Assembly: GCF_004010195.1 (NCBI RefSeq)
Contig: NC_057754.1
Coordinates: forward strand, 4,341,681 to 4,405,680
Direction of reading: 5' to 3'
DNA length: 64,000 bases
Source: Chiloscyllium plagiosum
Taxonomy: Eukaryota
The notes beneath the pieces are model-generated. The model was not told the origin of the DNA and did not search any database. It was given only the letters and a program-made list of their open reading frames with translations. The position numbers and the translations under genes are program-made. Numbering within the stretch: the stretch's first letter is position 1; every line of letters starts with the position of its first letter. Shown one piece after another: positions 1 to 61,096 of this stretch.

Positions 1-363
1 CCCAGGGCATCAGTGTGGACTTCAACAGTTTCCTAATTTCCCCTTCCCGCACCTCACCCTAGTTCCAAACTTCCAGCTCAGCACTGTCCCCATGACTTGT
101 CCGGACTTGTCCTACCTGCCTATCTCCTTTTCCACCTATCCACTCCACCCTCTCCTCCCTGACTTATCACCTTCATCCCCTCCCCCACTCACCCATTGTA
201 CTCTGTGCTACTTTCTCCCCACCCGCACCCTCCTCTAGCTTATCTCTCCACGCTTCAGGCTCACTGCCTTTATTCCTGATGAAGGGCTTTTGCCCGAAAC
301 GTCGATTCCGAAGCTCCTCGGATGCTGCCTGAACTGCTGTGCTCTTCCAGCACCACTAATCCA
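1..363 (+). mobile_element. Penelope-like element 3' terminus (pLTR), runs off the window start
   Basis: Pyrimidine-rich UTR followed by cctgatgaagggcttttgcccgaaacgtcgatt...ggatgctgcctgaactgctgtgctcttccagcaccac; same family recurs near 22745 and 61010. Confidence 0.7.
276..303 (+). ncRNA. Minimal type I hammerhead ribozyme core
   Basis: CUGAUGA-A-GGGC(UUUU)GCCC-GAAACGUC: both conserved boxes, perfect 4-bp helix II, palindromic ACGU in place of helix III, GUC cleavage triplet; helix I weak. Confidence 0.7.
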
Positions 364-1315: not shown

Positions 1316-1908
1316 AAGTTGGGATGGTGAGTGACTCAGAGGAGAGATTTCACCTGTCCCAACATATCTGCTGCTCTGGTCTATCTAGGTATGCAGGTCG
1401 CGTGTTTGGAAGGTTCTGTTGATCACTTGATTGTACCATCTGATTTACTAAATTCCTTGAAAGAAGGAAATCTATTACTCTTAACCCACAGCGATGTAGT
1501 TGACTCTTTCTGAAATGGCCACTCAGTTCAAGGGGCAATTAAGAACGCGCAACAAATGCTGGTGTTGCCAACAGCGCCCGCATACATTGAAAGAACGACG
1601 AAGGGAAAAAAGTCCTTTGATGATTCCCACATCTCAATGTATATCACACCTTAATCTCCGAGACTTGTGGGAACATGGTCCGTATCTCAATGGGACCGGC
1701 CTACAATTTAACCCCATCAGTCCCAGTACCATTATAGTGAGGCTGAATGATCTCAGACAGTGGCCATAGCATGGAGCCTTTGCTGAGGAGCGAACTGGGC
1801 ACAGACATCCAGCAGGAGGCAGCGGAGTTCAATCACCAAGGGAATTTCAGATTCCCAACACAGATTACAGGCAATTCTAAATGTCTGTATCGTCATTTCA
1901 TCTAGGGA

Positions 1909-4900
1909 CAGTGAGATCAGAGTGTACCAGGGATCAATCCTGGGGATCAGTGAGATCAGAATGTATGAGGGATTGATCCTGGGGATCAGTGAGATCAGGG
2001 CGTACCAGGGATCAATCCTGGGGATCTGTCAGATGGGAGTGTACCAGGGATCGATCCTTGGGATCAGTCACATGGGAGTGTACCAGGGATTGATCCTGAG
2101 GATCAGTCAGATGGGAGTGTACCAGGGATCAATCCTGAGGATCAGTCACATGGGAGTGTACCAGGGATTGATCCTGGGGATCAGTCAGATAGGGGTGTAC
2201 CAGGGATTGATCCTGGAGATCAGTCACATGGGAGTGTACCAGGGATCGATCCTGGGGATCAGTCAGATGGGAGTGTACCAGGGATCGATCCTGGGGATCA
2301 GTCAGATGGGAGTGTACCAGGGATCGATCATGGGGATCAGTCAGATGGGAGTTTACCAGGGATCAATCCTGGGGATCAGTGAGATAGGGGTGTACCAGGG
2401 ATCGATCCTGGGGATCAGTCAGATGGGAGTGTACCAGGGATCGATCCTGGGGATCAGTCAGATGGGAGTGTACCAGGGATTGATCCTGGGGATCAGTCAG
2501 ATGGGAGTGTACCAGGGATCGATCATGGGGATCAGTCAGATGGGAGTTTACCAGGGATCAATCCTGGGGATCAGTGAGATAGGGGTGTACCAGGGATCGA
2601 TCCTGGGGATCAGTGAGATAGGGGTGTACCAGGGATCGATCCTGGGGATCAGTCAGATGGGAGTGTACCAGGGATCGATCCTGGGGATCAGTCACATGGG
2701 AGTGTACCAGGGATCGATCATGGGGATCAGTCAGATGGGAGTGTACCAGGGATTGATCCTGGGGATCAGTCAGATGGGAGTGTACCAGGGATCGATCATG
2801 GGGATCAGTCAGATGGGAGTGTACCAGGGATCAATCCTGAGGATCAGTCACATGGGAGTGTACCAGGGATCAATCCTGGGGATCAGTGAGATAGGGGTGT
2901 ACCAAGGATCGATCCTGGGGATCAGTCAGATGGGAGTGTACCAGGGATCGATCCTGGGGATCAGTCAGATGGGAGTGTACCAGGGATTGATCCTGGGGAT
3001 CAGTGAGATAGGGGTGTACCAGGGATCGACCCTTGGGATCAGTCACATGGGAGTGTACCAGGGATTGATCCTGGGGATCAGTCAGATGGGAGTGTACCAG
3101 GGATCGATCCTGGGGATCAGTGAGATAGGGATGTACCAGGGATTGATCCTGGGGATCAGTCACATGGGAGTGTACCAGGGATTGATGCTGGGGATCAGTC
3201 AGATGGGAGTGTACCAGGGATCGATCCTGGGGATCAGTGAGATAGGGATGTACCAGGGATTGATCCTGGGGATCAGTCACATGGGAGTGTACCAGGGATC
3301 GATCATGGGGATCAGTCAGATGGGAGTGTACCAGGGATCGATCATGGAGATCAGTCGGATGGGAGTGTACCAGGGATTGATCCTGGGGATCAGTCAGATG
3401 GGAGTGTACCAGGGATCGATCCTGGGGATCAGTGAGATAGGGATGTACCAGGGATCGATCCTGGGGATCAGTCAGATGGGAGTGTACCAGGGATCAATCC
3501 TGGGGATCAGTGAGATAGGGATGTACCAGGGATCAATCCTGGGGATCAGTCACATGGGAGTGTACCAGGGATCAATCCTGGGGATCAGTCACATGGGAGT
3601 GTACCAGGGATTGATCCTGGGGATCAGTCAGATGGGAGTGTACCAGGGATCAATCCTGGGGATCAGTCACATGGGAGTGTACCAGGGATTGATCCTGGGG
3701 ATCAGTCAGATGGGAGTGTACCAGGGATCAATCCTGGGGATCAGTCACATGGGAGTGTACCAGGGATTGATCCTGGGGATCAGTCAGATGGGAGTGTACC
3801 AGGGATCAATCCTGGGGATCAGTCAGATGGGAGTGTACCAGGGATCAATCCTGGGGATCAGTCAGATGGGAGTGTACCAGGGATCAATCCTGGGGATCAG
3901 TCAGATGGGAGTGTACCAGGGATCAATCCTGGGGATCAGTCAGATGGGAGTGTACCAGGGATCAATCCTGGGGATCAGTCAGATGGGAGTGTACCAGGGA
4001 TCAATCCTGGGGATCAGTCAGATGGGAGTGTACCAGGGATCAATCCTGGGGATCAGTCAGATGGGAGTGTACCAGGGATCAATCCTGGGGATCAGTCAGA
4101 TGGGAGTGTACCAGGGATCAATCCTGGGGATCAGTCAGATGGGAGTGTACCAGGGATCAATCCTGGGGATCAGTCAGATGGGAGTGTACCAGGGATCAAT
4201 CCTGGGGATCAGTCAGATGGGAGTGTACCAGGGATCAATCCTGGGGATCAGTCAGATGGGAGTGTACCAGGGATCAATCCTGGGGATCAGTCAGATGGGA
4301 GTGTACCAGGGATCAATCCTGGGGATCAGTCAGATGGGAGTGTACCAGGGATCAATCCTGGGGATCAGTCAGATGGGAGTGTACCAGGGATCGATACTGG
4401 GGATCTGTCAGATCAGAGTGTACCAGGGATCGATCCTTGGGATCAGTCACATGGGAGTGTACCAGGGATTGATCCTGGGGATCAGTCAGATTGGAGTGTA
4501 CCAGGGATTGATCCTGGGGATCAGTCAGATTGGAGTGTACCAGGGATTGATCCTGGGGATCAGTCAGATTGGAGTGTACCAGGGATTGATCCTGGGGATC
4601 AGTCAGATTGGAGTGTACCAGGGATTGATCCTGGGGATCAGTCAGATTGGAGTGTACCAGGGATTGATCCTGGGGATCAGTCAGATTGGAGTGTACCAGG
4701 GATTGATCCTGGGGATCAGTCAGATTGGAGTGTACCAGGGATTGATCCTGGGGATCAGTCAGATTGGAGTGTACCAGGGATTGATCCTGGGGATCAGTCA
4801 GATTGGAGTGTACCAGGGATTGATCCTGGGGATCAGTCAGATTGGAGTGTACCAGGGATTGATCCTGGGGATCAGTCAGATTGGAGTGTACCAGGGATTG

Positions 4901-5575
4901 ATCCTGGGGATCAGTCAGATTGGAGTGTACCAGGGATTGATCCTGGGGATCAGTCAGATTGGAGTGTACCAGGGATTGATCCTGGGGATCAGTCAGATTG
5001 GAGTGTACCAGGGATTGATCCTGGGGATCAGTCAGATTGGAGTGTACCAGGGATTGATCCTGGGGATCAGTCAGATTGGAGTGTACCAGGGATTGATCCT
5101 GGGGATCAGTCAGATGGGAGTGTACCAGGGATCAATCCTGGGGATCAGTCAGATGGGAGTGTACCAGGGATCGATCCTGGGGATCAGTCAGATGGGAGTG
5201 TACCAGGGATTGATCTTGGGGATCAGTCAGATGGGAGTGTACCAGGGATCGATACTGGGGATCTGTCAGATCAGAGTGTACCAGGGATCGATCCTTGGGA
5301 TCAGTCAGATCAGAGTGTACCAGGGATTGATCCTGGGGATCAGTCAGATTGGAGTGTACCAGGGATTGATCCTGGGGATCAGTCAGATTGGAGTGTACCA
5401 GGGATCGATCCTGGGGATCTGTCAGATCAGAGTGTTCCAGGGATTGATCCTGAGGATCAGTCAGATTGGAGTGTACTGGGGTTGATCCCAAGAATGAGTG
5501 AGATCAGAGTGTACCAAAGGATCAGTGAGGTAGCGGTGTACCAGGGATCGATCCTGGGTATCTGTGAGATCGGTG
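1909..5575. repeat. 39-bp minisatellite, about 94 units
   Basis: Unit GGAGTGTACCAGGGATC(G/A)ATCCTGGGGATCAGTCAGATG repeated head to tail; generates the 1187-aa ORF 1922-5485. Confidence 0.97.
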
Positions 5576-6094
5576 TGTGATGAACTACCATTTTGTCCTT
5601 ATTCGTTCACGGAAGCTGGTGACAAGTCCAGCAGTTACTGACTACCTCCCACTGCCCTTTGAGGAGGCGCTGAGCTGACCCCTTGGCACACCCGCAGTGA
5701 CGTTAGGCAAAGTGTTCCAGGATCTTGACCCAGTGACAATGAAAGACCAACAGTATGTTTCCAAGTTTGGATGGTGCATGGTTTGAAGTGGAACCTGGGG
5801 ATGCCTCTGTTGACCAGAGTTGCAACTGACACAATGGTCCAAAACCTTACACTGTATCATTCCCTGATATCTAATCATGGCTCAAAGAAACAAGAGGCCA
5901 CAGATTTCTGCCAAGCACTCATCAGGACTGACACATGAGAAAAACCAGGAAGGAAACAGTCATTTATAAGTGAGCAAGAAAAGATGGTGGGGAAAGGTTG
6001 GAGTTAGGTCAGGATGGAGATACAGCAGGAGCAGTTGGCTCTCTGATCTTAGTTACACTGGTTACATATGTTCGCCGAGCTGGGAATTTGTGTT

Positions 6095-6134
6095 GCAGAC
6101 GTTTCGTCCCCTGTCTAGGTGACATCCTCAGTGC
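6095..6134 (-). ncRNA. Minimal type I hammerhead ribozyme (inverted copy)
   Basis: Reverse complement reads GCA-CUGAGGA-UGUCACCUAGACAGGGGAC-GAAACGUC-UGC; helix I GCA/UGC is fully Watson-Crick. Confidence 0.78.
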
Positions 6135-6309
6135 TTGGAAGCCTCCTGTGAAACGCTTCTGTGATCTTTCCTCCGGCATTTGTAGTGATTTGTATCTGCC
6201 GCTTCCGGTTGTCAGTTCCAGCTGTCCGCTGCAGTGGCCGGGATATTGAGTCCAGGTCGATGTGCATATTGATTGAATCTGTGGATGAATGCCATGCCTC
6301 TAGGAATTC
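6115..6309 (-). pseudogene. C-terminal fragment of Penelope-like RT/GIY-YIG ORF
   Basis: EFLEAWHSSTDSINMHIDLD resembles the (R)EFLEAWHS...SIN motif ending PLE GIY-YIG domains; frame runs into the terminal repeat and stops at TEDVT*. Confidence 0.75.
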
Positions 6310-6392
6310 CGCTGACAACCGGAAGCGGCAGATACAAATCACTATAAATGCCGGAGGAAAGATCACAGAAGCGCTTCACAGGAGGCTCCCAA

Positions 6393-6432
6393 GCACTGAG
6401 GATGTCACCTAGACAGGGGACGAAACGTCTGT
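6393..6432 (+). ncRNA. Minimal type I hammerhead ribozyme (PLE-associated)
   Basis: GCA-CUGAGGA-U-GUCaCCU(AGAC)AGGgGAC-GAAACGUC-UGU: helix I GCA/UGU, helix II of 6 bp with one mismatch, GUC site. Confidence 0.78.
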
Positions 6433-6804
6433 AACACAAATTCCCAGCTCGGCGAACAGAACCACCACAACGAGCACCCGAGCTACAAATCTTCTCCCAA
6501 ACTTTGAACTGGTTACATATGTAGCAACTCTCATTGATTAGGGCACAGGAATGGAGTTGGGATTGGCTGATTCCACAGCGCTTTCTCCATTGAAGTGTTA
6601 CAGCCAATCGGCCCATGTGTTCACGCTCTTCAAGTGGACTTTGTTACTTTGTGATAACCTCCTGTCTCTTCCCCATACCCTTGCCCGATATTTCCATCCA
6701 AAAAGACCATTCTCTTGAATGTCTTAATTCCACTTGCCTCTACCACATCTCGATAAATATTCCTTTTGCTTAGGGTCCAGGTATGTGAGTCAATTGTACA
6801 TATC

Positions 6805-7313
6805 GGCACGGCACAGTGGTTAGCGCTACTGCCTCACAGCGCCAGGGACCAGGGTTCGATTCGACGTTTGGGCGACTGCCGGTCTGGAGTTTGCAAGTTC
6901 TCCCCGTATCTGCGTGGGGCTTCCTCCGGGTGCTCCCGTTTCCTCCCACAGTCCAAAGATGTGCAGGTTAGGGCGGATTGGCCATACTAAATTGTCCCAT
7001 AGTGTCCAGGGATGTACAGGTTAGGGTGGATTGGCCATACTAAATTGTCCCATAGTGCCCAGGGATGTGCAGGTTAGGGTGGATTGGCCGTGCTAAATTG
7101 CCTCATAGTGTCCAGGGATGTGCAGGTTAGGGTGGATTGCCCATGGCAAATTGCTTTGTAGAGCCCAGGGATGTGTAGGTTAAGTGGATGAGGCATGGAA
7201 AATGCAGGGTTACGGGGATAGGGTAGGGGCTTGGGTCTGGATGAGATGCTCTTTGGAGGTTGGTGCAGACTCAATAGGCTGAATGGCCTCTTTCTGCACT
7301 GCAGGAATTCTAT
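6805..7313 (+). mobile_element. HE1-type V-SINE with about 4 internal 53-bp repeats
   Basis: tRNA-like head, V-core, repeated gatgtgcaggttagggtggattggcc...catagtgtccagg, tail ...gaattctatg. Confidence 0.88.
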
Positions 7314-10189: not shown

Positions 10190-11030
10190 AAAGAGACCTT
10201 GGAATGCAGGTTCATAGCTCCTTGAAAGTTGAGTCACAGGTAGACAGGATAGTGAAGAAGGCTGAAAAATGTGTTGCTGGAAACGTTGGTCCCAACCCTC
10301 GGACTCAGCACTGCCTTCCTGACCTGCAATCGCTTTTCCAGCAACACATTTTTCAGCTCTGATCTCCAGCATCTGCAGTCCTCACTTTCTCCTAGTGAAG
10401 AAGGCATTTGGTATGCTTTCCTTTATTGGTCAGAGCATTGAGTATTAGGAGTTAGGGGTCATGTTTCAGCTGAACAGGACATTGGTGAGGCTACTTTGGA
10501 ATATTGCATGCAGTTCTGGTCTTCCTATCAGAAAGATGTTGTGAAACTTGAAAGAGTTCAGAAAAGATTTACAAGCATGTTGCCAGGGTTGGAGGGTTTG
10601 AGCTATGGAGCAAAGCTGAACAGGCTGGGGCTGTTTTCCCTGGAGCGTTAGAGGCTGAGGGGTGACCTTATAGAGGTTTATAAATCATGAGGGGCATGGA
10701 TAGATTAAATAGACAAGGTCTTTTCCCTGGGATGAGGGAGTACAGAACTAGAGGGCATAAGTTTCAAGGGTGAGGGGAAAGATATAAAACGGATCTAAGG
10801 GGAACTTTTTCACACAGAGGGTGGTGCATGAGCTACCAGAGGAAGTTGTGGAGGCAGGTACAATGACAGCATTTAAAAGGCATCTGGATGGGTATATGAA
10901 TAGGAAGGGTTTACAGGGATATGGGCCAAGTGCTGGCAAATGGGACTGCATTAGGTTAGCATATCTGGTCGGCATGGACGAGTTGTACCGAAGGGTCTGT
11001 TTCCATGCTGTACATCTCTATGACTCTATA
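10190..11030 (+). mobile_element. HER1/CR1 LINE 3' fragment with nested PLE-type insertion
   Basis: RDLGMQVHSSLKVESQVDRIVKKA ... ELPEEVVEAGTMTAFKRHLDGYM, tail ctctatgactctat. Confidence 0.9.
10261..10392. mobile_element. Short fold-back PLE-terminus insertion with 13-bp TSD
   Basis: 23-bp inverted repeat 10261-10283 / 10335-10357; tagtgaagaaggc at 10250-10262 and 10393-10405; tail ctctgatctccagcatctgcagtcctcactttctcct shared with the 22672 element. Confidence 0.72.
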
Positions 11031-11179
11031 ATAATGAGAGCATAAACCAAAAATGCTAGAAATTGCTCAGCAGGTCAGGTACTATCTGTGGAGACAGTAA
11101 CAGAGCTAAAATTTTGGGTCGATTGTCAGAAACGTTAGCAATTGTTGATCTGCCAAGTAGAACATACCTAACCAGCACA

Positions 11180-11512
11180 TGGTGTGGCAGTTCAGTGGTT
11201 AGCACTGCTGCCTCACAGCACCAGGGTCCCAGGTTTGATTCCAGCCTTGGGTGACTGTCTCTGTGGAGTTTGCACATTCTCCCGTGTCTGTGTGGGTTTC
11301 CTCTGGTGCCCTGGTTTCCTCCCACAGTCCAAAGATGCACAGGTTCAGGAGGATTGGCCATGGGAAATTGCCCATAGTGCTCAGGGGATGTACATGGGCT
11401 GTTAGCCATGGGAAATGCAGGGTTACAAGGGTGAGTCTGGGTGGGATGCTCTTCAGAGGGTTGGTGTGGATTCAATGGGCCAAATGGTCTGCTTCCACGC
11501 AATATTCTATGT
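11180..11512 (+). mobile_element. HE1-type V-SINE
   Basis: Head, V-core and tail present. Confidence 0.85.
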
Positions 11513-11835
11513 GCATTATCCATAATAACCCATCACTTAGACATGTCATTTGACTTTTCCCCAGCATTTACAAGGAGTTGGTGGCATAGTGTTAAGGTTA
11601 GTAATCCGGTGATCTCGGCGAATACTCTGGGATCAGGTTTGGAACCCTGCTGTGGTGTCTAAGTCAATTAATATATCTTAACAGTGAGGACCACCATGCA
11701 ATTGTCTGTTGCCATAAAAATCCATCTGATGCATTGGAGGGAAAGAAATGGGGCCTATAGGTAACTCCAGGCCCACAACAATGGGGGAATGCTTAACAGC
11801 CTTCTTGAAAATGGTCCCTCAAGTAGGGAACAGGT

Positions 11836-12450
11836 CATAAGACATAGGAGCAAAAAGTAGGCCATTCGGCCCATTGAGTCTGCTCCGTCATTTCATCATG
11901 ACTGACAAGTTTCTCAACTGCCGTCTCTCTGCAACCTTTGATCCCCTTGACAATCGAGAACCTATCGGTTTCTGTATTTAAAATACTCCACAGCCTTTTA
12001 TGGCAATGAATTTCATAGATTCACCATTTTCTGGCTGAAAAGGCTTCTCCTCATTTCTGTTCTAAAGGGTCTTCCCTTTACTCTAAGACTGTGCCCTCGG
12101 GCCCTAGTCTCTCCTACCAATGGAAACATCTTCCCAATGTCCGCTCTGTCCAGGCCATTCAGCGTTCTGTAAATTTCAATTAGATCCCCCCTCATCCTTC
12201 TAAACTCCATCGAATATAGACCCAGAGTCTGCAAACGTTCCTCACATGTTAAGATTTTCATTCCTGGGATCATTCTCATGAACTTTTTCTGGACTCGCTC
12301 TTGAGCCAATAAATCCTTCCTGATGTGTGGGCCCAAAATTGCTCACAGTACTCTGAATGTGGTCTGACCAGAGCCTTTTAAAGCCTCAGAAGTACATCCC
12401 TGCCTTTATATTCTAGTCCTCTCGAAATAAATGCCAACTTTGTATTTGAT
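11836..12450 (-). mobile_element. CR1-clade LINE 3' fragment (second family)
   Basis: ERVQKKFMRMIPGMK..EERL..LGLYSMEFRRMRGDLIEIY in ORF 12013-12336. Confidence 0.88.
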
Positions 12451-12451
12451 T

Positions 12452-12737
12452 AGAAACAGGCCATTTAGCCCAATCAGTCCACAACAGCCTTCTGAAGAGT
12501 AACACCCCCCCCTACATTTACCCCAATTAATGGACCTAACACTGGGGGACAATTTAGCATGGCCAATTCACCTGATCTGCACATCTTTGAACTGTGGGAG
12601 GAAACCGGAGCGCTTGGATGAAACCCACGCAGTCACAGGGAGAATGCGCAAACTCCATACAGACAGTGGCCCAAGGCGGGAATCGAACCCGGGTCACTGG
12701 CACTGTGAGGCTGTGGTGCTAACCATTGTGCTGCCCC
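12452..12737 (-). mobile_element. HE1-type V-SINE
   Basis: Reverse complement of head, V-core and tail. Confidence 0.82.
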
Positions 12738-13289
12738 TGACTATCAACCCGACCTGCAAGTTTACCTGAAGAGAAACCTGGACTAGGGCTCCCAAGTTCC
12801 TTTGCACTTCAGATTTCTGAATTTCCTCCCCAGTTAGAAAATAGTCTGAGTGCTGACCTTGCCGGTAACACCTATATCCCGTGAAAGAACAATAAACCTT
12901 TAATCCATCTCACAATAACTGATTGCTGAATGCTAACCAACACTTCTAAATTTGCAACCACATAATTATCAGCTTTCATAGATGTTGAGTGCAACACACA
13001 CCATCAGCACCAATCTTGACTCCTCAAATATGTCAACGCCTGTACAACCTTTTTAAAAATTCGCCTATGGCACTTGGGTGTAACCAGCAAGGCTAGAATT
13101 TAGTGCCCATCCCTAATTGCCCTTGAGAAGATGGTGGTGAGCCACCTTATTGACAAGTGGTAATCGGTGTGGTGAAGATACACCCACTGTACTATTACAG
13201 AGGGAGTTCGAGGAACAACAGGGAGTCAAAACTTCCAAGTCAAGGTGGTGTTTGAGCTGGAAGGGAACCTACAGGTCCCCCATGTGCCC

Positions 13290-13945
13290 CACTAGTCAAT
13301 CCCCCATTATCCTGGGGGGTTACCATTGGCCAGAAACTGAACTGGACTAGCCACTGTGGCGACAACAGTAAGTCAGAAGCTGGGAATCCAGCAGCAAGTA
13401 ACTCATCTCCTGACTCCCCAAAGCCTGTCCACCACCCATAAGGACCAGGGGCATGGAATATCCCTCACTTGCCCTGGATGAGTGCAGCCCCAACAACACT
13501 CAAAATCATTCACGATAAAGCAGCTCCTGCTTGATTGGCACCACGTTCACAAGCATCCATTCCCTCCACCACCGATGCTCAGTGGCAGCAATGTGTATTA
13601 TTTTACAAGATGCACTGTGGAAATTCACCAAAGATCCTTAGAATGCACCTTTAGACCCACAACCACTTTCATCTAGAAGGAGAAGGGTAGCAGATACAAG
13701 GGTAACACCACCCCCTGTAAGTTTCCCTCCGAGCCACTCGTCATCCTGACTCGGAAATATATCATCCATTCTTTCACTGTCGCAGGGTCAAAATCTTGGA
13801 ATTCCTTCCCTAAGGACATTGTAGGTCAACCCACAGCTGATGGACTGCAGCAATTCAAAAAGGCACCACCTTCTCAAGGGGCAACTAGGGACAAGCAATA
13901 AGTGCTGGGCCCAGCCAGCGATGCCCACATCCCATGAGCAAATAA
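13290..13945 (+). mobile_element. L2/CR1-like LINE 3' fragment
   Basis: aagatgcactg..., ggaattccttccctaa (WNSLP-type motif) and tail gggcaactaggga..caataagtgctgg; same family at about 20040-20500 and 50057-50570. Confidence 0.65.
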
Positions 13946-14096
13946 AGAAAATACAAACAGATAAACAGATGAAGCTTTATCTTGGATAGGTACGGCTTGA
14001 AGTTCAACTCATCCAGGCAAGTGGAGGCCACTCCATCGTACTCCTGACTTGTGCCAGGGGCGCAGATGAACTTCTGAGAGTCTGTGTGAACTTTTT

Positions 14097-15285
14097 GAAT
14101 TGAATTGAATTGAATCGAATTGATTGTCATATGTACCGAGGCATAGTGAAAAGCTTTGTCTTGCGAGCAATATAGGCAGATCACAGAATTAAATAGCATA
14201 GGTAAGTAAATGATAGGTAAACAGCAGCAAAAACAAAAACTCAGGTACAGGCAAATGCTAAGAGCTTGTGAGTCCATTCAGTATTCTAACAACAGTAGGG
14301 TAGAAACTATTACGAAACCGGCTGGTGCTTGTGTTCAGGCTTATCCCCGATAGTAGAGGTTGTAGAAAAATATTGCCGGGTGGGATGGATCTTTGAGAAT
14401 GCTGGCTGCCTTTCCTTGACAGTGGGCCTGGTAGATGGATTCTATAGAGAGGACATTGACCCTTGTGATTGTCCGGGCCGAGTTCACCACTCTCTGTAAC
14501 CGTCTCTGATCTTGAATGGTACAGTTGCCTTACCAGGTAGAGATACATCCAGACAGAATGCTCTCGATGGCACACCTATAAAAGTTGGCAAGGGTATTCG
14601 CCATCATGCCAAATTTTCTCAGCTCCCTGAGAAAGAAGAGACGTTGTTGGGCCTTTGTAACCAGTGCGTCCACATGAAGAGTCCAAGAAAGCTCTTGACC
14701 ACTCCCAAGAGCTTGACACTCTCCACTCGTTCCACCTCTGTGCTGTTAATGTGTAGGGGGGCATGAGTAACATCCCGCTGAAAGTCAATAATGAGTTCCT
14801 TAGTTTTGCTGGCATTGAGAGCTAGGTTGTTCTCAGTGCACCATTTTTCCAGGTTTTCCATCTCCCATCTGTAGTCTGTTTTGTCACCATCTGAGATTCG
14901 ACCGACTATGGTGGTGTCATCAGCAAACTTGTAAATGGCATTAGTCTGGTATTTGGCAACGCAGTTATAGGTATACAGTGAGTACAGTAAGGGGGTTGAG
15001 TACGTAACCCTGGGGGGCTACAATGTTGAGTGTTAATGACAATGAAATATTGTCCCCAATCTTCACTGATTGTGGCCTGTGGGTCAGGAAACTGAGGATC
15101 CAGTTGCAGAGAGTGGGGCTTAGTCCGAGATCACTAAGTTTAGTAATCAGTCTCGAGGGGATAATAGTGTTGAAGGCTGAACTGTAGTCAAGGAGTAGGA
15201 TTCTTACATAGCTGTTCTCAGTGTCAAGATGTACTAGGGAGGAGTGAAGGGCAAGTGATATGGCATCTGACATGGATCTGTTAGT
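14097..15285 (-). mobile_element. Rex1/Babar-clade LINE, 5'-truncated, frameshifted RT
   Basis: [15 protein letters not shown]...[18 protein letters not shown]...APQGYVL, KFADDTT, WCTENNLALNASKTKELIIDF; 3' tail (TTCAA)n. Confidence 0.9.
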
Positions 15286-15481
15286 CAGTGCTGTTTGGTT
15301 TAGGAACCAGGCCTCATAGCATTCCCTTAAAGCAAATCTGTATAATTGAGAGACAACATGCAAACTATGGTCTGGAGTAAGCCACTCAGCTCCGAAGGTC
15401 TGATCTACCATTCAAAATGAGCATAGCTGATCTCACCTTAGCCTCAATGGCACATACCTGCCCTCTCTCCCTAACCCTTAC

Positions 15482-18960: not shown

Positions 18961-19117
18961 CTGTGGGAAGAAAGCAGATTCCAGGGACTTTCCATCTAAA
19001 GATCTTATTGCTTGAAAGATCATGACAGGAGAAAGGTTCAATGTCACAGTTTAAGCAAGTAACATTCCAAACAAGGAATACTGACATCGAGTCAAGCATG
19101 AGTGAGTAAAGTGTAAA

Positions 19118-19255
19118 TGAAAAGCGAAAGAACTGCAGATGCTGTCAATCAGAAACGAAAACAGAAATTTCTGGAAAAGCTCAGCAGGTCTGGCAGTATC
19201 TGTGGAGAGACATCAGAGATAACATTTCAGGTCAAGTGAATCTTCCTCAGAACTG
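19118..19255 (-). mobile_element. PLE terminus with degenerate hammerhead (19221-19250)
   Basis: Reverse complement ctgaggaagattcacttgacctgaaatgtt followed by cagacctgctgagcttttccag; same family as the 30165 element. Confidence 0.6.
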
Positions 19256-19443
19256 GAAATTGTAAATTAATCAGACTCAACTGCCCATGAGATAAAGTTC
19301 ACTGCACTCCCTCCACCCCATGCACATGTGTCCAACAAGAAGAGGGTTTATGCGGCTACAGGTAGGACTATCACGAGCTCTGGCCTACAGTATAAAGCTG
19401 TCCACAATCCTGCATAAAACACTATTTTTAAGATGTACCATTA

Positions 19444-22464: not shown

Positions 22465-23346
22465 TAGAACAAAGGGATCCAGGAGTATTGGTTCAAAGCT
22501 CCTTGAGAGTGAAGTCACAGCTAGACAGGGTGGTGAAGAAGGCTTTCAACATGTCAGCTTTCACCACTCAGAGCACTGAGTTGGGACGCCTTGTTGCAGC
22601 TATACAAGACATTGGTGAGGCCACATCTGGAATACTGCCTGTAGTTCTGATCGCCCTACTAGAAAGCATACTGTGGTGCTGGAAAAACACAGCGGGTCAG
22701 GCAGCATCCAAGAAGCAGGAATATTCACGTTTCAGGCATGTGCCCTGATGAAGGACCTATGCCCGAAACGTCAATTCTCCTGCTCCTCGGATGCTGCCTG
22801 GCCTGCTGTACTTTTCCAGCACCACACTCTCGACTCTGATCTCCAGTATCTGCAGTCCTCACTTTTTCCTAGAAAGGATGCTGTTAAACATCAAAATAGT
22901 GCAGAAAGGATTTACTAGGATGCTACCTGCACTAGAAGATTTGAGTTGTAAGGAGAGGTTGGTATGTTTTTCCCGAGAGTTTAGGAGATTGTGGGGGTGA
23001 TCTTATAGAGTTCTATAAAATCATGAGAGGCATAGAGAAGGTAACTAGAGGACACAGGCTTTAGGTGAAAGGGGAGAGACATAAAAGGGTCCCGGCGGGG
23101 AGGTGGGGGGCAATTATTTTCACACAGAGGGTGATGAGTGTCTGGAACTGGGCTGCCAGAGGTAGTGGTGGAGACGAGTACAATTTAGTCATTTAAGGAT
23201 CATTTGGACACGCGCATAGATGGAATAGGTATGGACTGATGTGGACCAAACACAGGGCAAATAGGACTAGATTATTGTGAAAATTGGGCTGCACGGACAA
23301 GTTGGGCCGAAGGGTCTGTTTTCATGTTGTAAACCTCTATGACTAT
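22465..23346 (+). mobile_element. HER1/CR1 3' fragment with nested PLE-type insertion
   Basis: VQSSLRVKSQLDRVVKKAF ... VQKGFTRMLP; tail ctctatgactat. Confidence 0.87.
22672..22868. mobile_element. Fold-back PLE-terminus insertion with hammerhead core (22745-22772, +) and 8-bp TSD
   Basis: gtggtgctggaaaa..caggcagcatcc mirrored by ggatgctgcctg..ttttccagcaccac; ctgatgaaggacctatgcccgaaacgtc; ctagaaag at 22659-22666 and 22869-22876. Confidence 0.78.
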
Positions 23347-29290: not shown

Positions 29291-30164
29291 CCTGATGTAG
29301 AACTCATAACCAGCATAGGAAATAAGCAGAACGTCTTTGCTCATACAGAGGTTAAAAAAAAGGTAAACCACTTTTATAAACCCCGTATTTCGGGTAGATT
29401 GTGCAGAATGCAACTAAGACGAAATGTTGCTGTAGTGAGGTGAGAGTGCCTGTTTAAATAGCATTTAATTCTAAAAAAAAACAAATTAACAACTTAAAAA
29501 TGCATGTCTCGCCTCACTTAAGAAATAATCAGCCACATAAAATGTTTATGAAGATGTGAAGCTGTGACTAACACTTTCACTCAATGCCCAGGAGATGTTG
29601 CTTTTGGCCCTGATCTGCTGTATCATGTGACACTTATTTATTTATGCAATTCTTCAGCAGTTTCACTGTCTGTTCTCTTCCCTGATTCAACTGAGCAGCT
29701 TACATCGAAAGATGAACAGACAACGCAGCTTTGTTCAAGATGTGCCTTCTTAATTCCATCTCAGTCACCCAGTATCCCAACAACTTTAAGGAATACTGTT
29801 GGCTCTTTCCAGCCTCTTCAGGTTAATAGTAGATATTCTTGACAGTGGGGTCGTGCTCACAGACCACTTGCCTAGTGTTCGGCCCACAGTTTAAATAACC
29901 TGATGACTGGGACTTATTAAAACGTGAATCCACTTTCACAGTAGGATCCGGACGTACACTTTTTACAGCTTGTTAAATCAAATCTCATTACTCATTGGGA
30001 AACAGTGAGCGATTTGGCCGTCACAATGTACACTGCTGTGTCCATTCCTCATCACATCTGCAGACCCCTGCAGTCATGACCCACTGCACTGTCTCCTGAG
30101 CTGTTAACTCGTTCCTCGCCAGTGACTTCAAAACACTGGAATTCCTCACAATTTACAGAATTCC

Positions 30165-30383
30165 AGATGGAAGGAATGAAAGAACTGCGAATGCTGTTAA
30201 TCAGAAGTTGCTGGAAAAGCTCAGCTGGTGTGAAGAGATAGCAGAGTTCACGGTTCGGGTCTGGCGACCCTTTCCTCAGAACTGTTCTGAGGAAGGAGTC
30301 ACCGGCCCCGAAAGGTGAACTCTGATTTCACTCCTTGGTCATCGACCAGACCTGCTGAGCTTTTCCAGCAATTTCTGCTTTGG
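30165..30383. mobile_element. Fold-back PLE-terminus insertion with two divergent degenerate hammerheads and 11-bp flanking repeat
   Basis: Symmetry centre ttcctcagaac-t-gttctgaggaa (30283); outer arms ttgctggaaaagctcagc / gctgagcttttccagcaa; ttacagaattc at 30153-30163 and 30384-30394. Confidence 0.72.
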
Positions 30384-30427
30384 TTACAGAATTCTGGAAC
30401 CTTATTAGTATCACCTAACCATTACAC

Positions 30428-42050: not shown

Positions 42051-43325
42051 CCGGCGTGGTAACTCAGTGGGTTAGCACTGCTGCCTCACAGCGCCAGGGA
42101 CTCAGGCTCAATTCCAGCCTCGAGCGACTGTCTGTGTGGAGTTTGCACATTCTCCCCGTGTCTATGTGGGGTTTCCTCCCATAGTCCAAAAACGCGCAGG
42201 TTAGGGTGGATTGGCCATGTTAAATTGTCCCGTAGTGCCCAGGGATGTGCAGGTTAAGGTGGATTGGCCGTGCTAAATTGCCCCATAGTGTCCAGGGATG
42301 TGCAGGTTAGGGTGGATTGGCCGTGCTAAATTGTCCATAGTGTCCAGGGATGTGCAGGTTAGGGTGGACTGGCCGTGCTAAATTGTCCCATAGTGCCCAG
42401 GGATGTGCAGATTAGAGTGGATTGGCCGTGCTAAATTGTCCCATACTGCCCAGGGATGCGCAGGTTAGGGTGGATTGGCCATTGTATGTTGTCCCATAGT
42501 GCCCAGGGATGTGCAGGTTAGGGTGGATTGGCCGTGCTAAATTGTCCCATAGTGTCCAGGGATGTGCAGATTAGAGTGGATTGGCCATGCTATATTGTCC
42601 CATAGTGTCCAGGGACGTGCAGGTTAGGATGGATTGGCCGTGCTAAATTGTCCCATAGTGCCCAGGGATGTGCAGATTAGAGTGGATTGGCCATTGTATA
42701 TTGTCCCATAGTGCCCAGGGATGTGCAGGTTAGGGTGGATTGGCTGTGCTAAATTGTCCCATAGTGCCNNNNNNNNNNNNNNNNNNNNNNNNNNNNNNNN
42801 NNNNNNNNNNNNNNNNNNNNNNNNNNNNNNNNNNNNNNNNNNNNNNNNNNNNNNNNNNNNNNNNNNNNNNNNNNNNNNNNNNNNNNNNNNNNNNNNNNNN
42901 NNNNNNNNNNNNNNNNNNNNNNNNNNNNNNNNNNNNNNNNNNNNNNNNNNNNNNNNNNNNNNNNNNNNNNNNNNNNNNNNNNNNNNNNNNNNNNNNNNNN
43001 NNNNNNNNNNNNNNNNNNNNNNNNNNNNNNNNNNNNNNNNNNNNNNNNNNNNNNNNNNNNNNNNNNNNNNNNNNNNNNNNNNNNNNNNNNNNNNNNNNNN
43101 NNNCAGGGATGTGCAGGTTTGGGTGGGTTGGCCGTGCTAAATTGTCCCATAGTGCCCAGGGGTGTGCAAGTTAGGGTGGATTGGCCATTGTATATTGTCC
43201 CATAGTGCCCAGGGATGAGCAGGTTAGGTGGCTTAGTCATGGGGAAATGTGGAGTTACAGGGATAGGGTGGGATGCTCTTCAGAGGGTCAGTGCAGACTT
43301 GATGGGCTGAATGTCCACACTGTAC
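42051..43325 (+). mobile_element. HE1-type V-SINE with expanded 53-bp internal tandem array (contains an N gap)
   Basis: Head 42051-42125, V-core, at least 12 visible 53-bp units either side of N 42769-43103, tail to about 43325. Confidence 0.9.
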
Positions 43326-43784: not shown

Positions 43785-44034
43785 CCACTCGGAAGCCAGA
43801 ACCCGTCAGGGTATCAGCAACATGTCCATTCTCACTGATCAGGGTGGTAGTGTTACCCAGTTGGCAGCTGTCTTGGCACTGACCCTTCAGGCAAGTCCGC
43901 TGGCAGATGGTCGGCGTGAAGACCACCTTGAACCGTTCTTGCCATTGGTCGTTAGCTCGGACAGAGACCCACGCTAGACAAGCCAGTCCTAGACCCACCA
44001 ACAAACCGAGAGTCTTTGAATCCATGGAACGCAT
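43785..44034 (-). CDS. LTBP3: First coding exon of a latent TGF-beta binding protein (LTBP3-like): signal peptide plus N-terminal 4-Cys region
   Basis: Translation [83 protein letters not shown] matches the LTBP3 N-terminus as I recall it ([23 protein letters not shown]...[17 protein letters not shown]). Hydrophobic signal peptide; ends at canonical phase-1 donor GTG G|GTAAGT (intron starts 43784). Alternative ATG at 44025 (MDSK). Confidence 0.88.
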
Positions 44035-45030: not shown

Positions 45031-46063
45031 CATAGAATCCCAACAGTGTGGAATCAGGCCAATCGGCCCGTCGGGTCCACACCAAAAGCATCCCACCCAA
45101 TCCCTGTAACCCTGCATTTCCCATGGCTAATCCACCAAGCCTGCACATCCCTGGACACTATGGGGCAGTTTAGCATGGCCAATCCACCCTAACCTGCACA
45201 TCCCTGGGCACTATGGGACAATTTAGCACGGCCAATCCACCCTAACCTGCACATCCCTGGGCACTATGGGGCAATTTNNNNNNNNNNNNNNNNNNNNNNN
45301 NNNNNNNNNNNNNNNNNNNNNNNNNNNNNNNNNNNNNNNNNNNNNNNNNNNNNNNNNNNNCAATCCACCCTAACCTGCACATCCCTGGACATTATGGGAC
45401 AATTTAGCACGGCCAATCCACCCTAACCCGCACACCCCTGGACATTATGGGACAATTTAGCACGGCCAATCCACCCTAACCCGCACACCCCTGGACATTA
45501 TGGGACAATTTAGCACGGCCAATCCACCCTAACCTGCACATCCCTGGGCACTCTGGGACAATTTAGCACGGCCAATCCACCCTAACCTGCACATCCCTGG
45601 GCACTCTGGGACAATTTAGCACGGCCAATCCACCCTAACCTGCACATCCCTGGGCACTATGGGACAATTTAGCACGGCCAATCCACCCTAACCTGCACAT
45701 CCCTGGGCACTATGGGACAATTTAGCACGGCCAATCCACCCTAACCTGCACATCCCTGGGCACTATGGGACAATTTAGCACGGCCAATCCACCCTAACCT
45801 GCACATCCCTGGGCACTATGGGACAATTTAGCACGGCCAATCCACCCTAACCTGCACATCCCTGGGCACTATGGGACAATTTAGCACGGCCAATCCACCC
45901 TAACCTGCACATCCCTGGACACTATGGGGCAATTTAGCACGGCCAATCCACCCTAATCTGCACATCCCTGGGCACTATGGGACAATTTAGCACGGCCAAT
46001 CCACCCTGACCTGCACACCTTTGGACTGTGGGAGGAAACCAGAGCACCCGGAGGAACCCCACA
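45031..46063 (-). mobile_element. HE1-type V-SINE (head missing) with expanded 53-bp tandem array (contains an N gap)
   Basis: At least 14 visible reverse-complement 53-bp units, many identical; N 45278-45360; V-core end at about 46020-46063. Confidence 0.9.
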
Positions 46064-60340: not shown

Positions 60341-61008
60341 TGGGGCGATTTAGTGATTAGAGCTTTCCATTTGGCCTCAGGAAGATGAGGGGGACATCCA
60401 AGTCTTGATTGGTGGCATCACTGAATTGGAGCTTTTAGGCACCATGTAGCTCCTTTCTTGGACCCTGTAAAGAATATCCTCAAGGAGATGGTCATCTTCT
60501 AAACTGCCAGTGGAAAACAACGACCAGATAATGTGTCTCAGGGATGTGGGTTGAGGGTTAAATCTTGGCCCCGGGTTCTGGGAAACCTAGACTAAGGACC
60601 ATAGGTCCTTCCCGAGGGCAGACAAGGACCGCGCTTCAATATCTCAACTGAGAGATGGCACCTCCTGTGGTGCAGCCATGCAGAGTCAATCTGGATCAGA
60701 AGCCTCTGGGATAGGAGGCCGAAACCAGTTCAGGTAACACATTACTGCAGAAAGGGGAGAGAAAGTCAAGGGGGGGGATTTGGTGTTCAAAATCACAGGA
60801 GACTTTCATTGGGTACAACAAGCAGAAAGTTTATCTGGTCGCAGAGAGGGAAAATGTTTTCAGCAGCAAATTGCAAAGTCCTGGCATGGTGGTCAAAACA
60901 GTCTTTCAGGATGGAATATACAAAATACAGAAACATCTACAGGGCTTATGGGAAAAGAGCAGGGGTGTAGTGGTGAAAGACCAGTTTGCCAGACTGTTTC
61001 CTGGGACT

Positions 61009-61096
61009 CCTGATGAATCGACGTTTGTCCGAAACGTCGATTTTCCTGCTCCTCAGATGCTGCCTGACCAGCTGTGCTTTTCCTGCACCACTCTAA
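61009..61096 (+). mobile_element. PLE terminus fragment with hammerhead core (61010-61038)
   Basis: ctgatga-atcgacgtttgtcc-gaaacgtc then gattttcctgctcctcagatgctgcctgacc; same family as 276 and 22745. Confidence 0.62.

Follow-up and report, generated by a model that had tools for sequence, protein, structure and literature searches.

The LTBP3 locus and its features

The window, by which we mean the whole 64-kb stretch of DNA analysed, holds a unit of about 450 bp in which two pieces of a Penelope-like element (PLE) meet head to head. The unit lies 37 kb downstream of the first coding exon of LTBP3. This exon was first located by motif search, and in it the ERFKVVF region follows directly on the signal peptide; the exon substantiates the LTBP host gene named in an earlier note on this DNA. 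Because no other exon of the 1223-aa shark LTBP3 (P0006) is found in the window, the unit probably sits in LTBP3 intron 1, which would then be longer than 43 kb. Two N gaps (42769-43103 and 45278-45360) flank the exon, the former lying between exon and unit. A Pfam scan of 440 of the 448 stop-free frames in unique sequence gave no EGF or TB domain, which is uninformative, as the true LTBP3 exon was missed as well. The features of the locus are as follows.

43785-44034, minus strand: first coding exon of LTBP3, from signal peptide to ...FRV, with phase-1 GT donor; 99% to P0006
6057-6071, plus strand: left TSD (13-15 bp), its TGT overlapping the arm start; direct repeat 15/15, junction inspection
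6069-6310, minus strand: inverted, 5'-truncated, tail-less PLE copy of 242 nt (147-nt arm and 95-96-nt "loop")
6309-6118, minus strand, with stop at 6117-6115: last 64 aa of the PLE ORF; 53/64 identical to P0002
6095-6134, minus strand: minimal hammerhead, sense in LTBP3 pre-mRNA; helix I GCA 6134-6132 / UGC 6097-6095
Parts of the minus-strand motif: core 6131-6125, unpaired U 6124, stem II 6123-6106, GAAACGUC 6105-6098; predicted cut after 6098
6303-6314, no strand: head-to-head junction; an 8-bp palindrome (6303-6310) closes the inverted copy
6312-6458, plus strand: arm part of the direct, 5'-truncated PLE copy; last 33 ORF codons, stop at 6410-6412, then terminal-repeat sequence
6393-6432, plus strand: minimal hammerhead; GCA 6393-6395, core 6396-6402, unpaired U 6403
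Parts of the plus-strand motif, continued: stem II 6404-6421, GAAACGUC 6422-6429, UGU 6430-6432; predicted cut after 6429
6459-6509, plus strand: one-sided AC-rich "tail" of about 50 nt, reaching the family 3' end at 6508/6509
6508-6522, plus strand: right TSD, direct repeat

Anatomy of the unit

The inverted arms (6069-6215 and 6312-6458) are 147 nt long, complementary at 143 of 147 positions (97%) and separated by 96 nt. Their four mismatches are all transitions and leave perfect runs of 33, 28, 13, 43 and 26 bp. Positions 6057-6071 and 6508-6522 form a direct repeat identical in 15 of 15 letters. As a TSD it is to be counted as 13-15 bp long, because letters at its edges can belong to the element or to the arm. 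The final TGT of the left copy is also the opening three letters of the inverted arm, and the first one or two letters of the right copy are possibly element-derived, other family copies ending at 6508/6509. The loose ends of such copies cluster at 6506-6509, and fewer of them fall at 6465-6471.

From left to right, the unit consists of a TSD, the tail-less inverted copy of 242 nt, the junction, the tailed direct copy of 198 nt and the second TSD. The tail of about 50 nt occupies one side only, the left half being devoid of it. Each half thus holds sequence that is absent from the other: the tail belongs to the direct half alone, and 95-96 nt of ORF further upstream to the inverted half alone. 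Read from its sequence, the unit is a pair of 5'-truncated copies joined head to head, one tailed and one tail-less. The earlier note had described inverted arms around a loop, bounded by a TSD; the arms, the 96-nt spacing and the TSD hold, while the "loop" turned out to be more PLE coding sequence on the minus strand. Past 6310, the family sequence diverges from the unit and runs on as ordinary PLE ORF (17-41 records per DNA run). The join itself can be read either as an extra G and a 3-nt CTG match to the family continuation, or as a blunt joint with one untemplated base.

Identity of the element

On the minus strand, spacer and left arm encode 64 residues followed by a stop codon, and these match C-termini of shark proteins (five hits among 14 candidates). 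The right arm codes for the last 33 of the 64 residues. The match at 53 of 64 residues is to P0002, a shark protein in which RVT_1 (E 3e-6) is directly followed by the endonuclease motifs VVYKIPCKDC, YIGQTGR and RIHEH; the relative P0004 gives a weak GIY-YIG hit (E 0.027). The zinc finger pattern CX2-5CXXC is absent from the linker in three of three relatives examined. An extra zinc finger in the stretch that links RT to EN is described as a trait of Neptune and Nematis (PMC8557442). RT and GIY-YIG domains without such a finger therefore indicate the Penelope/Poseidon layout (PMC8557442), with the provision that the window copy comprises the last 64 codons only and that the layout is read from relatives.

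Judged by sequence, then, the unit derives from an endonuclease-bearing PLE of Penelope/Poseidon type. The PLE origin proposed in the earlier note is borne out by the 83% identity of the ORF C-terminus to a shark protein with RT and GIY-YIG. The family is highly repetitive and is represented by 10,350-14,620 contigs per DNA run, a figure that does not amount to a copy number. Two shark gene isoforms, P0001 (5'-nucleotidase-domain protein) and P0005 (MAP3K7), end in the endonuclease C-terminus of the PLE; these ends are either exonised PLE pieces or artefacts of gene prediction.

Hammerhead motifs

The core CTGAGGA-T-stem II-GAAACGTC, with a stem II of 18 nt, is present on both arms, at 6396-6429 on the plus strand and at 6131-6098 on the minus strand. 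This pattern occurs three times in the window against 0.00 occurrences expected, and in none of 100 shuffles; its presence on both arms agrees with the previous claim of one complete hammerhead core per arm, one on each strand. Several features of a minimal hammerhead (min-HHR) are present, namely the CUGANGA and GAAA boxes, an NUH cut triplet, an unpaired base after A9, the G10.1-C11.1 pair and palindromic 15.2-16.2. This anatomy supports the designation as a minimal type I hammerhead with palindromic, loop-less helix III. Helix I has 3 bp only, GCA/UGC in the minus-strand motif and GCA/UGU in the plus-strand one, where T6432 occupies a position at which the family has C.

An ATG (6402-6404) stands at the start of stem II. 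Counted from it, +28 is the base after which the cut is predicted, and +108 is where the element ends. The 36-residue frame that begins at this ATG and runs to the element end is interrupted by one stop in the right arm; over the part of it that the inverted arm contains, it is free of stops. The Rfam check proposed in the earlier note yielded no hammerhead family match, whether 1.6 kb was scanned at E<=5 or 111 nt at E<=10. When two motif copies were co-folded without constraints, the active dimer did not form; since the hammerhead core is outside what nearest-neighbour folding models, this result carries no weight.

Single minimal hammerheads are reported to show no detectable cleavage in vitro and their dimers low cleavage (PMC4209133). 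By analogy, the lone motif on each half of the unit is most likely inactive. Dual minimal hammerheads on opposite strands, about 100-700 bp apart, were described already in 2014 and were considered to be probably truncated PLEs (PMC4209133).

Related units and other repeats in the window

Two further head-to-head PLE units, from other hammerhead-bearing families, bring the number of such units to three in 64 kb. In addition, there are solo ends of the second and third families.

22659-22884: second head-to-head unit; arms 22672-22746 and 22752-22826 (83%), tail to about 22868, TSD 14/16
30153-30399 (about 30173-30383), reverse orientation: third head-to-head unit, of a further family, with the tail on the left
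276-356 (plus strand), 61008-61092 (plus strand) and about 19110-19258 (minus strand): three solo hammerhead-bearing ends

The eight hammerhead motifs of these three families have 11 invariant core columns in common, and stem II differs by family. The TSD of the second unit, like that of the main unit, has a terminal TGT that is also part of the tail-less arm. Both units of the same orientation (2/2) display one asymmetry, in which a putative outer start and a tail would belong to one target strand and a putative inner start with a short TGT/ACA match to the other. In the third unit, the TSD is degraded, its copies of 20 and 16 nt differing by a 4-nt gap. The second unit is enclosed by another repeat, which may be CR1-like.

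Repeats of other kinds are found nearby. A 39-bp minisatellite extends over about 3.7 kb (about 1900-5580) with strong GC skew; its stop-free frames of 1232 aa and 688 aa are probably without coding meaning. Just upstream of the unit, at 5700-5779, lies a high-copy repeat of about 45 nt, at which depth peaks sharply in each of the three DNA runs. At 14622-15411 on the minus strand, two overlapping frames with weak RVT_1 matches represent a decayed LINE fragment.

Presence in two species and age

Both junctions between flank and element were found in X2 and X6, DNA runs of two samples of organism A, and in X12, a run of organism B. Aligned letters differ from the window at 1 in 804 and 5 in 778 positions in X2/X6 and at 25 in 821 (3.0%) in X12. 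At the right junction in X12, 41 letters reach into the element, beyond the 31 letters of our bridging rule; at the other five junctions, 21-25 letters do. Presence of both junctions in A and B means that the insertion predates the A/B split. An empty-site joint was not seen among the 15 joints listed, of 37, from the three DNA runs, whose contigs drop rare alleles.

The divergence of the arms, 4/147 or 2.7% (95% range 0.7-7.0%), matches the divergence between species A and B. Judged against the family majority, the left arm acquired three of the mismatches and the right arm one; changes in TSD and arms are uncompensated. Variants private to this copy stand at 6139, 6153, 6182 and 6432. From these four mismatches, we infer that the arms diverge as expected under neutral decay. 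With the pedigree rate of the epaulette shark, 7e-10 per generation (PMC10587355), the divergence corresponds to some 20 million generations (range 3-250 million). The age of the unit is thus in the millions of generations, the error being too wide for a finer statement. The earlier suggestion of a young insertion is not supported, both junctions being present in a second species about 3% diverged; the unit is young only relative to older repeats.

Predicted RNA duplex and RNA reads

The unit is predicted to fold with an MFE of -330.8 kcal/mol (z = -31). Forcing the hammerhead helices would cost 76-82 kcal/mol in the full unit vs 4.6-7.2 kcal/mol in a lone arm. The long duplex masking the ribozyme, as envisaged in the earlier note, is thereby supported at the level of folding, which predicts a 147-bp RNA duplex excluding the hammerhead fold. 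The duplex of each strand contains two A-C mismatches. In the minus-strand transcript, i.e. in LTBP3 pre-mRNA, the antisense arm would come first and be followed by the sense hammerhead of the left arm; the duplex would be spliced out together with the intron. Masking is unlikely to matter, because a lone minimal hammerhead without a partner on the same strand is reported to be inactive anyway.

RNA reads were taken from X21, one poly(A) single-cell run of which about 2/100 of reads were sampled. It gave 306 reads, of which 88% run on into unlike sequence and none (0/306) lies on the unique flanks 5780-6059 and 6540-6810. For both these reasons, they are reads of the family and uninformative on the locus. 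At 6420-6459 they are strongly biased towards one element strand (143 vs 9), the element-sense one by the strand rule used. Read ends do not pile up in X21, which is weak evidence either way on cleavage. Differences of A>G type at 6139 and 6153 and of T>C type at 6339, 6363 and 6432 were considered as RNA editing and rejected, the same differences being present in DNA contigs of the family.

One could imagine that the unit has been given a function by its host. Intronic dsRNA would then serve as an ADAR or Dicer substrate, affecting LTBP3 splicing or small-RNA silencing of PLEs, while the ribozyme would be kept off. The stability of the predicted fold and the high cost of the hammerhead within it agree with this, as do the early transcription of the antisense arm on the minus strand, the A-C mismatches in the duplex of either strand and the retention of the unit in two species. 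Antisense small RNAs against Penelope are, moreover, reported from rotifers (PMC3846280). We nevertheless consider such a function very improbable. The divergence of the unit is that of neutral decay, with uncompensated changes in TSD and arms, and a lone minimal hammerhead leaves little to mask. The differences seen in RNA reads are accounted for by DNA variants of the family. Intronic duplexes are also common here: the window contains 27 inverted pairs (40 nt or longer, within 1.5 kb), and the unit is the best matched of the 25 listed.

How the unit arose

It is very probable, in our opinion, that the unit is a dead-on-arrival PLE stub of an architecture already published, fixed in at least two shark species, neutrally decaying and most likely inert. 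We suggest that it was formed by twin priming. The GIY-YIG nuclease would nick both target strands 13-15 nt apart, and both target 3' ends would then prime reverse transcription on element RNA. One start would be placed at the outer site (6509), giving rise to the tailed copy. The other would lie some 50 nt further upstream, at an inner site (6458-equivalent) where 3 nt match the target, and would produce the tail-less copy. Both cDNAs would stop early, after 198 and 242 nt, and would subsequently be joined head to head. Their overlap would make up the 147-bp inverted repeat, and each half would receive a terminal-repeat hammerhead. We infer twin priming from the geometry of the unit and from one in vitro study of another species. 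Some features agree less well with our reading: the 3-nt target match, where that study reports start sites without homology to the cut DNA, the long tail, the 3-bp helix I and the absence of an Rfam match.

The inverted copy might also have been made by snap-back, that is by a single cDNA or RNA folding back and priming itself, if the asymmetry is due to deletion at a later stage, to a second jump between templates or to the use of an antisense template. Arkhipova and colleagues take palindromes at inverted junctions as a sign of self-priming on an antisense template (PMC3846280). Of 236 positions in the inverted copy, only one holds an 8-bp palindrome, and the end of this palindrome coincides with the junction, a circumstance noticed after the fact; however, it is native coding sequence and lies off-centre with respect to the axis of the inverted repeat. 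The arms are in the same state at sites variable in the family (6339/6188 and 6361/6166), as if copied from one template, but two RNAs from a single source element would give this result just as well. The tail and the 96-nt spacer are each unique to one half. Simple self-copying is thereby ruled out and snap-back, which we find unlikely, needs an extra step; by the same token, the label "fold-back" given in the earlier note misdescribes the mechanism.

Two other explanations concern the nature of the unit as a whole. It could be a non-autonomous mobile element of its own, similar to a MITE or a retrozyme, as it is bounded by a TSD, has long inverted arms with hammerheads and belongs to a very abundant family. 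Still, the 64-kb window contains no second copy of it, other copies of the family continue past 6310 as PLE ORF, and the 15 of 37 joints listed are scattered and do not repeat the junction. By definition, a non-LTR retrozyme has two or more consecutive hammerhead-bearing units in tandem on one strand (bioRxiv 10.64898/2026.07.22.740005), whereas the unit has one motif per strand and no tandem. We regard its mobility as a unit as extremely improbable. The probability that the inverted repeat is an artefact of assembly is, in our judgement, practically negligible. Assemblies are known to have difficulty with inverted PLE structures (PMC8557442), and no single contig covers the whole unit, but there are four differences between the arms, the TSD is an exact repeat and three independent runs from two species yielded both junctions of flank and element.

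Significance of the putatively twin-primed PLE stubs

Returning to the stub itself, a single locus carries little weight; it is a clean example of the published Penelope pattern, which recurs twice more in the window. Its value is that of a fossil. The asymmetry of tail and no tail, the geometry of hammerhead and ATG and the element end at +108 match the only Penelope element that has been reconstituted in vitro. The origin of the inverted PLE copy, by self-priming or by two-ended priming, is unsettled, and the abundant shark units may bear on it. Our literature search, which covered few subscription papers and did not include Repbase, found no paper dealing specifically with hammerheads of shark Penelope elements or with the editing of hairpins formed by PLEs.

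A bolder proposal, which we think rather improbable, is that two-ended priming by shark Penelope mass-produces near-perfect intronic hairpins, each made in one step. These would act as substrates for ADAR and endo-siRNA production, silencing the family, and would neutralise hammerheads in pre-mRNA; the asymmetry of start sites would record how a Penelope dimer handles the target strands. If this were true, PLE hairpins of sharks would be the counterpart of inverted Alu pairs.

Comparison with known systems

Inverted Alu pairs give rise to intronic dsRNA from inverted repeats and are plausible ADAR substrates. The shark unit resembles them in being predicted to form a long, near-perfect duplex in a pre-mRNA intron. 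Unlike them, it would have been made in one insertion event, with a spacer of 96 nt and 97% complementarity.

The motifs on the arms correspond to min-HHRs of Cervera and De la Pena (2014, PMC4209133) in the CUGANGA and GAAA boxes, in one unpaired base between 9 and 10.1, in the G10.1-C11.1 pair and in palindromic 15.2-16.2 without a helix III loop. They differ in a bulged stem II and in a helix I of 3 bp vs 4-5 bp, the latter being the length in Schistosoma minimal hammerheads; a variant from D. virilis has a helix I of 2 bp (PMC4209133). No shark is named in the part of that paper available to us.

Insertions of EN+ PLEs are typically described with an adjacent inverted 5'-truncated copy, a one-sided tail of 30-40 bp and a TSD (Arkhipova et al. 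2013, PMC3846280; Craig et al. 2021, PMC8557442). The shark unit shares with them the inverted copy on the 5' side, the one-sided tail, a short TSD, heavy 5' truncation and a short palindrome at the junction. It departs from them in having about 200-240 nt of element per half and no full ORF, and a tail of about 50 nt vs 30-40. At 13-15 bp, its TSD also exceeds the 8-10 bp given for the rotifer cases.

An experimental parallel is offered by PAc, a Poseidon element from Anolis carolinensis (Frangieh et al. 2024, PMC11167929). In this element, both target strands are cut and extended, and the tail is delimited by two internal sites at which reverse transcription starts. The ATG of PAc stands at the start of stem II, the hammerhead cut lies 26 nt downstream and an RT start lies 111-118 nt into the ORF; the hammerhead cuts only with protein and is dispensable for insertion in vitro (PMC11167929). 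In the account available to us, PAc was studied as a full tandem element and with no model of an inverted copy, whereas the shark unit is a head-to-head stub. PAc starts are, furthermore, reported as non-homologous to the cut DNA, and the shark unit has a 3-nt match at its inner end. In other respects, the shark family resembles PAc: RT is succeeded by GIY-YIG, an ATG, the putative ORF start, again stands where stem II begins and the predicted cut is at +28 vs about 26. The element end, in an AC-rich stretch, is at +108 vs about 110 nt into the ORF, two end points bound the tail, and AT-rich sequence comes after the 3' ends of family copies, as in PAc.
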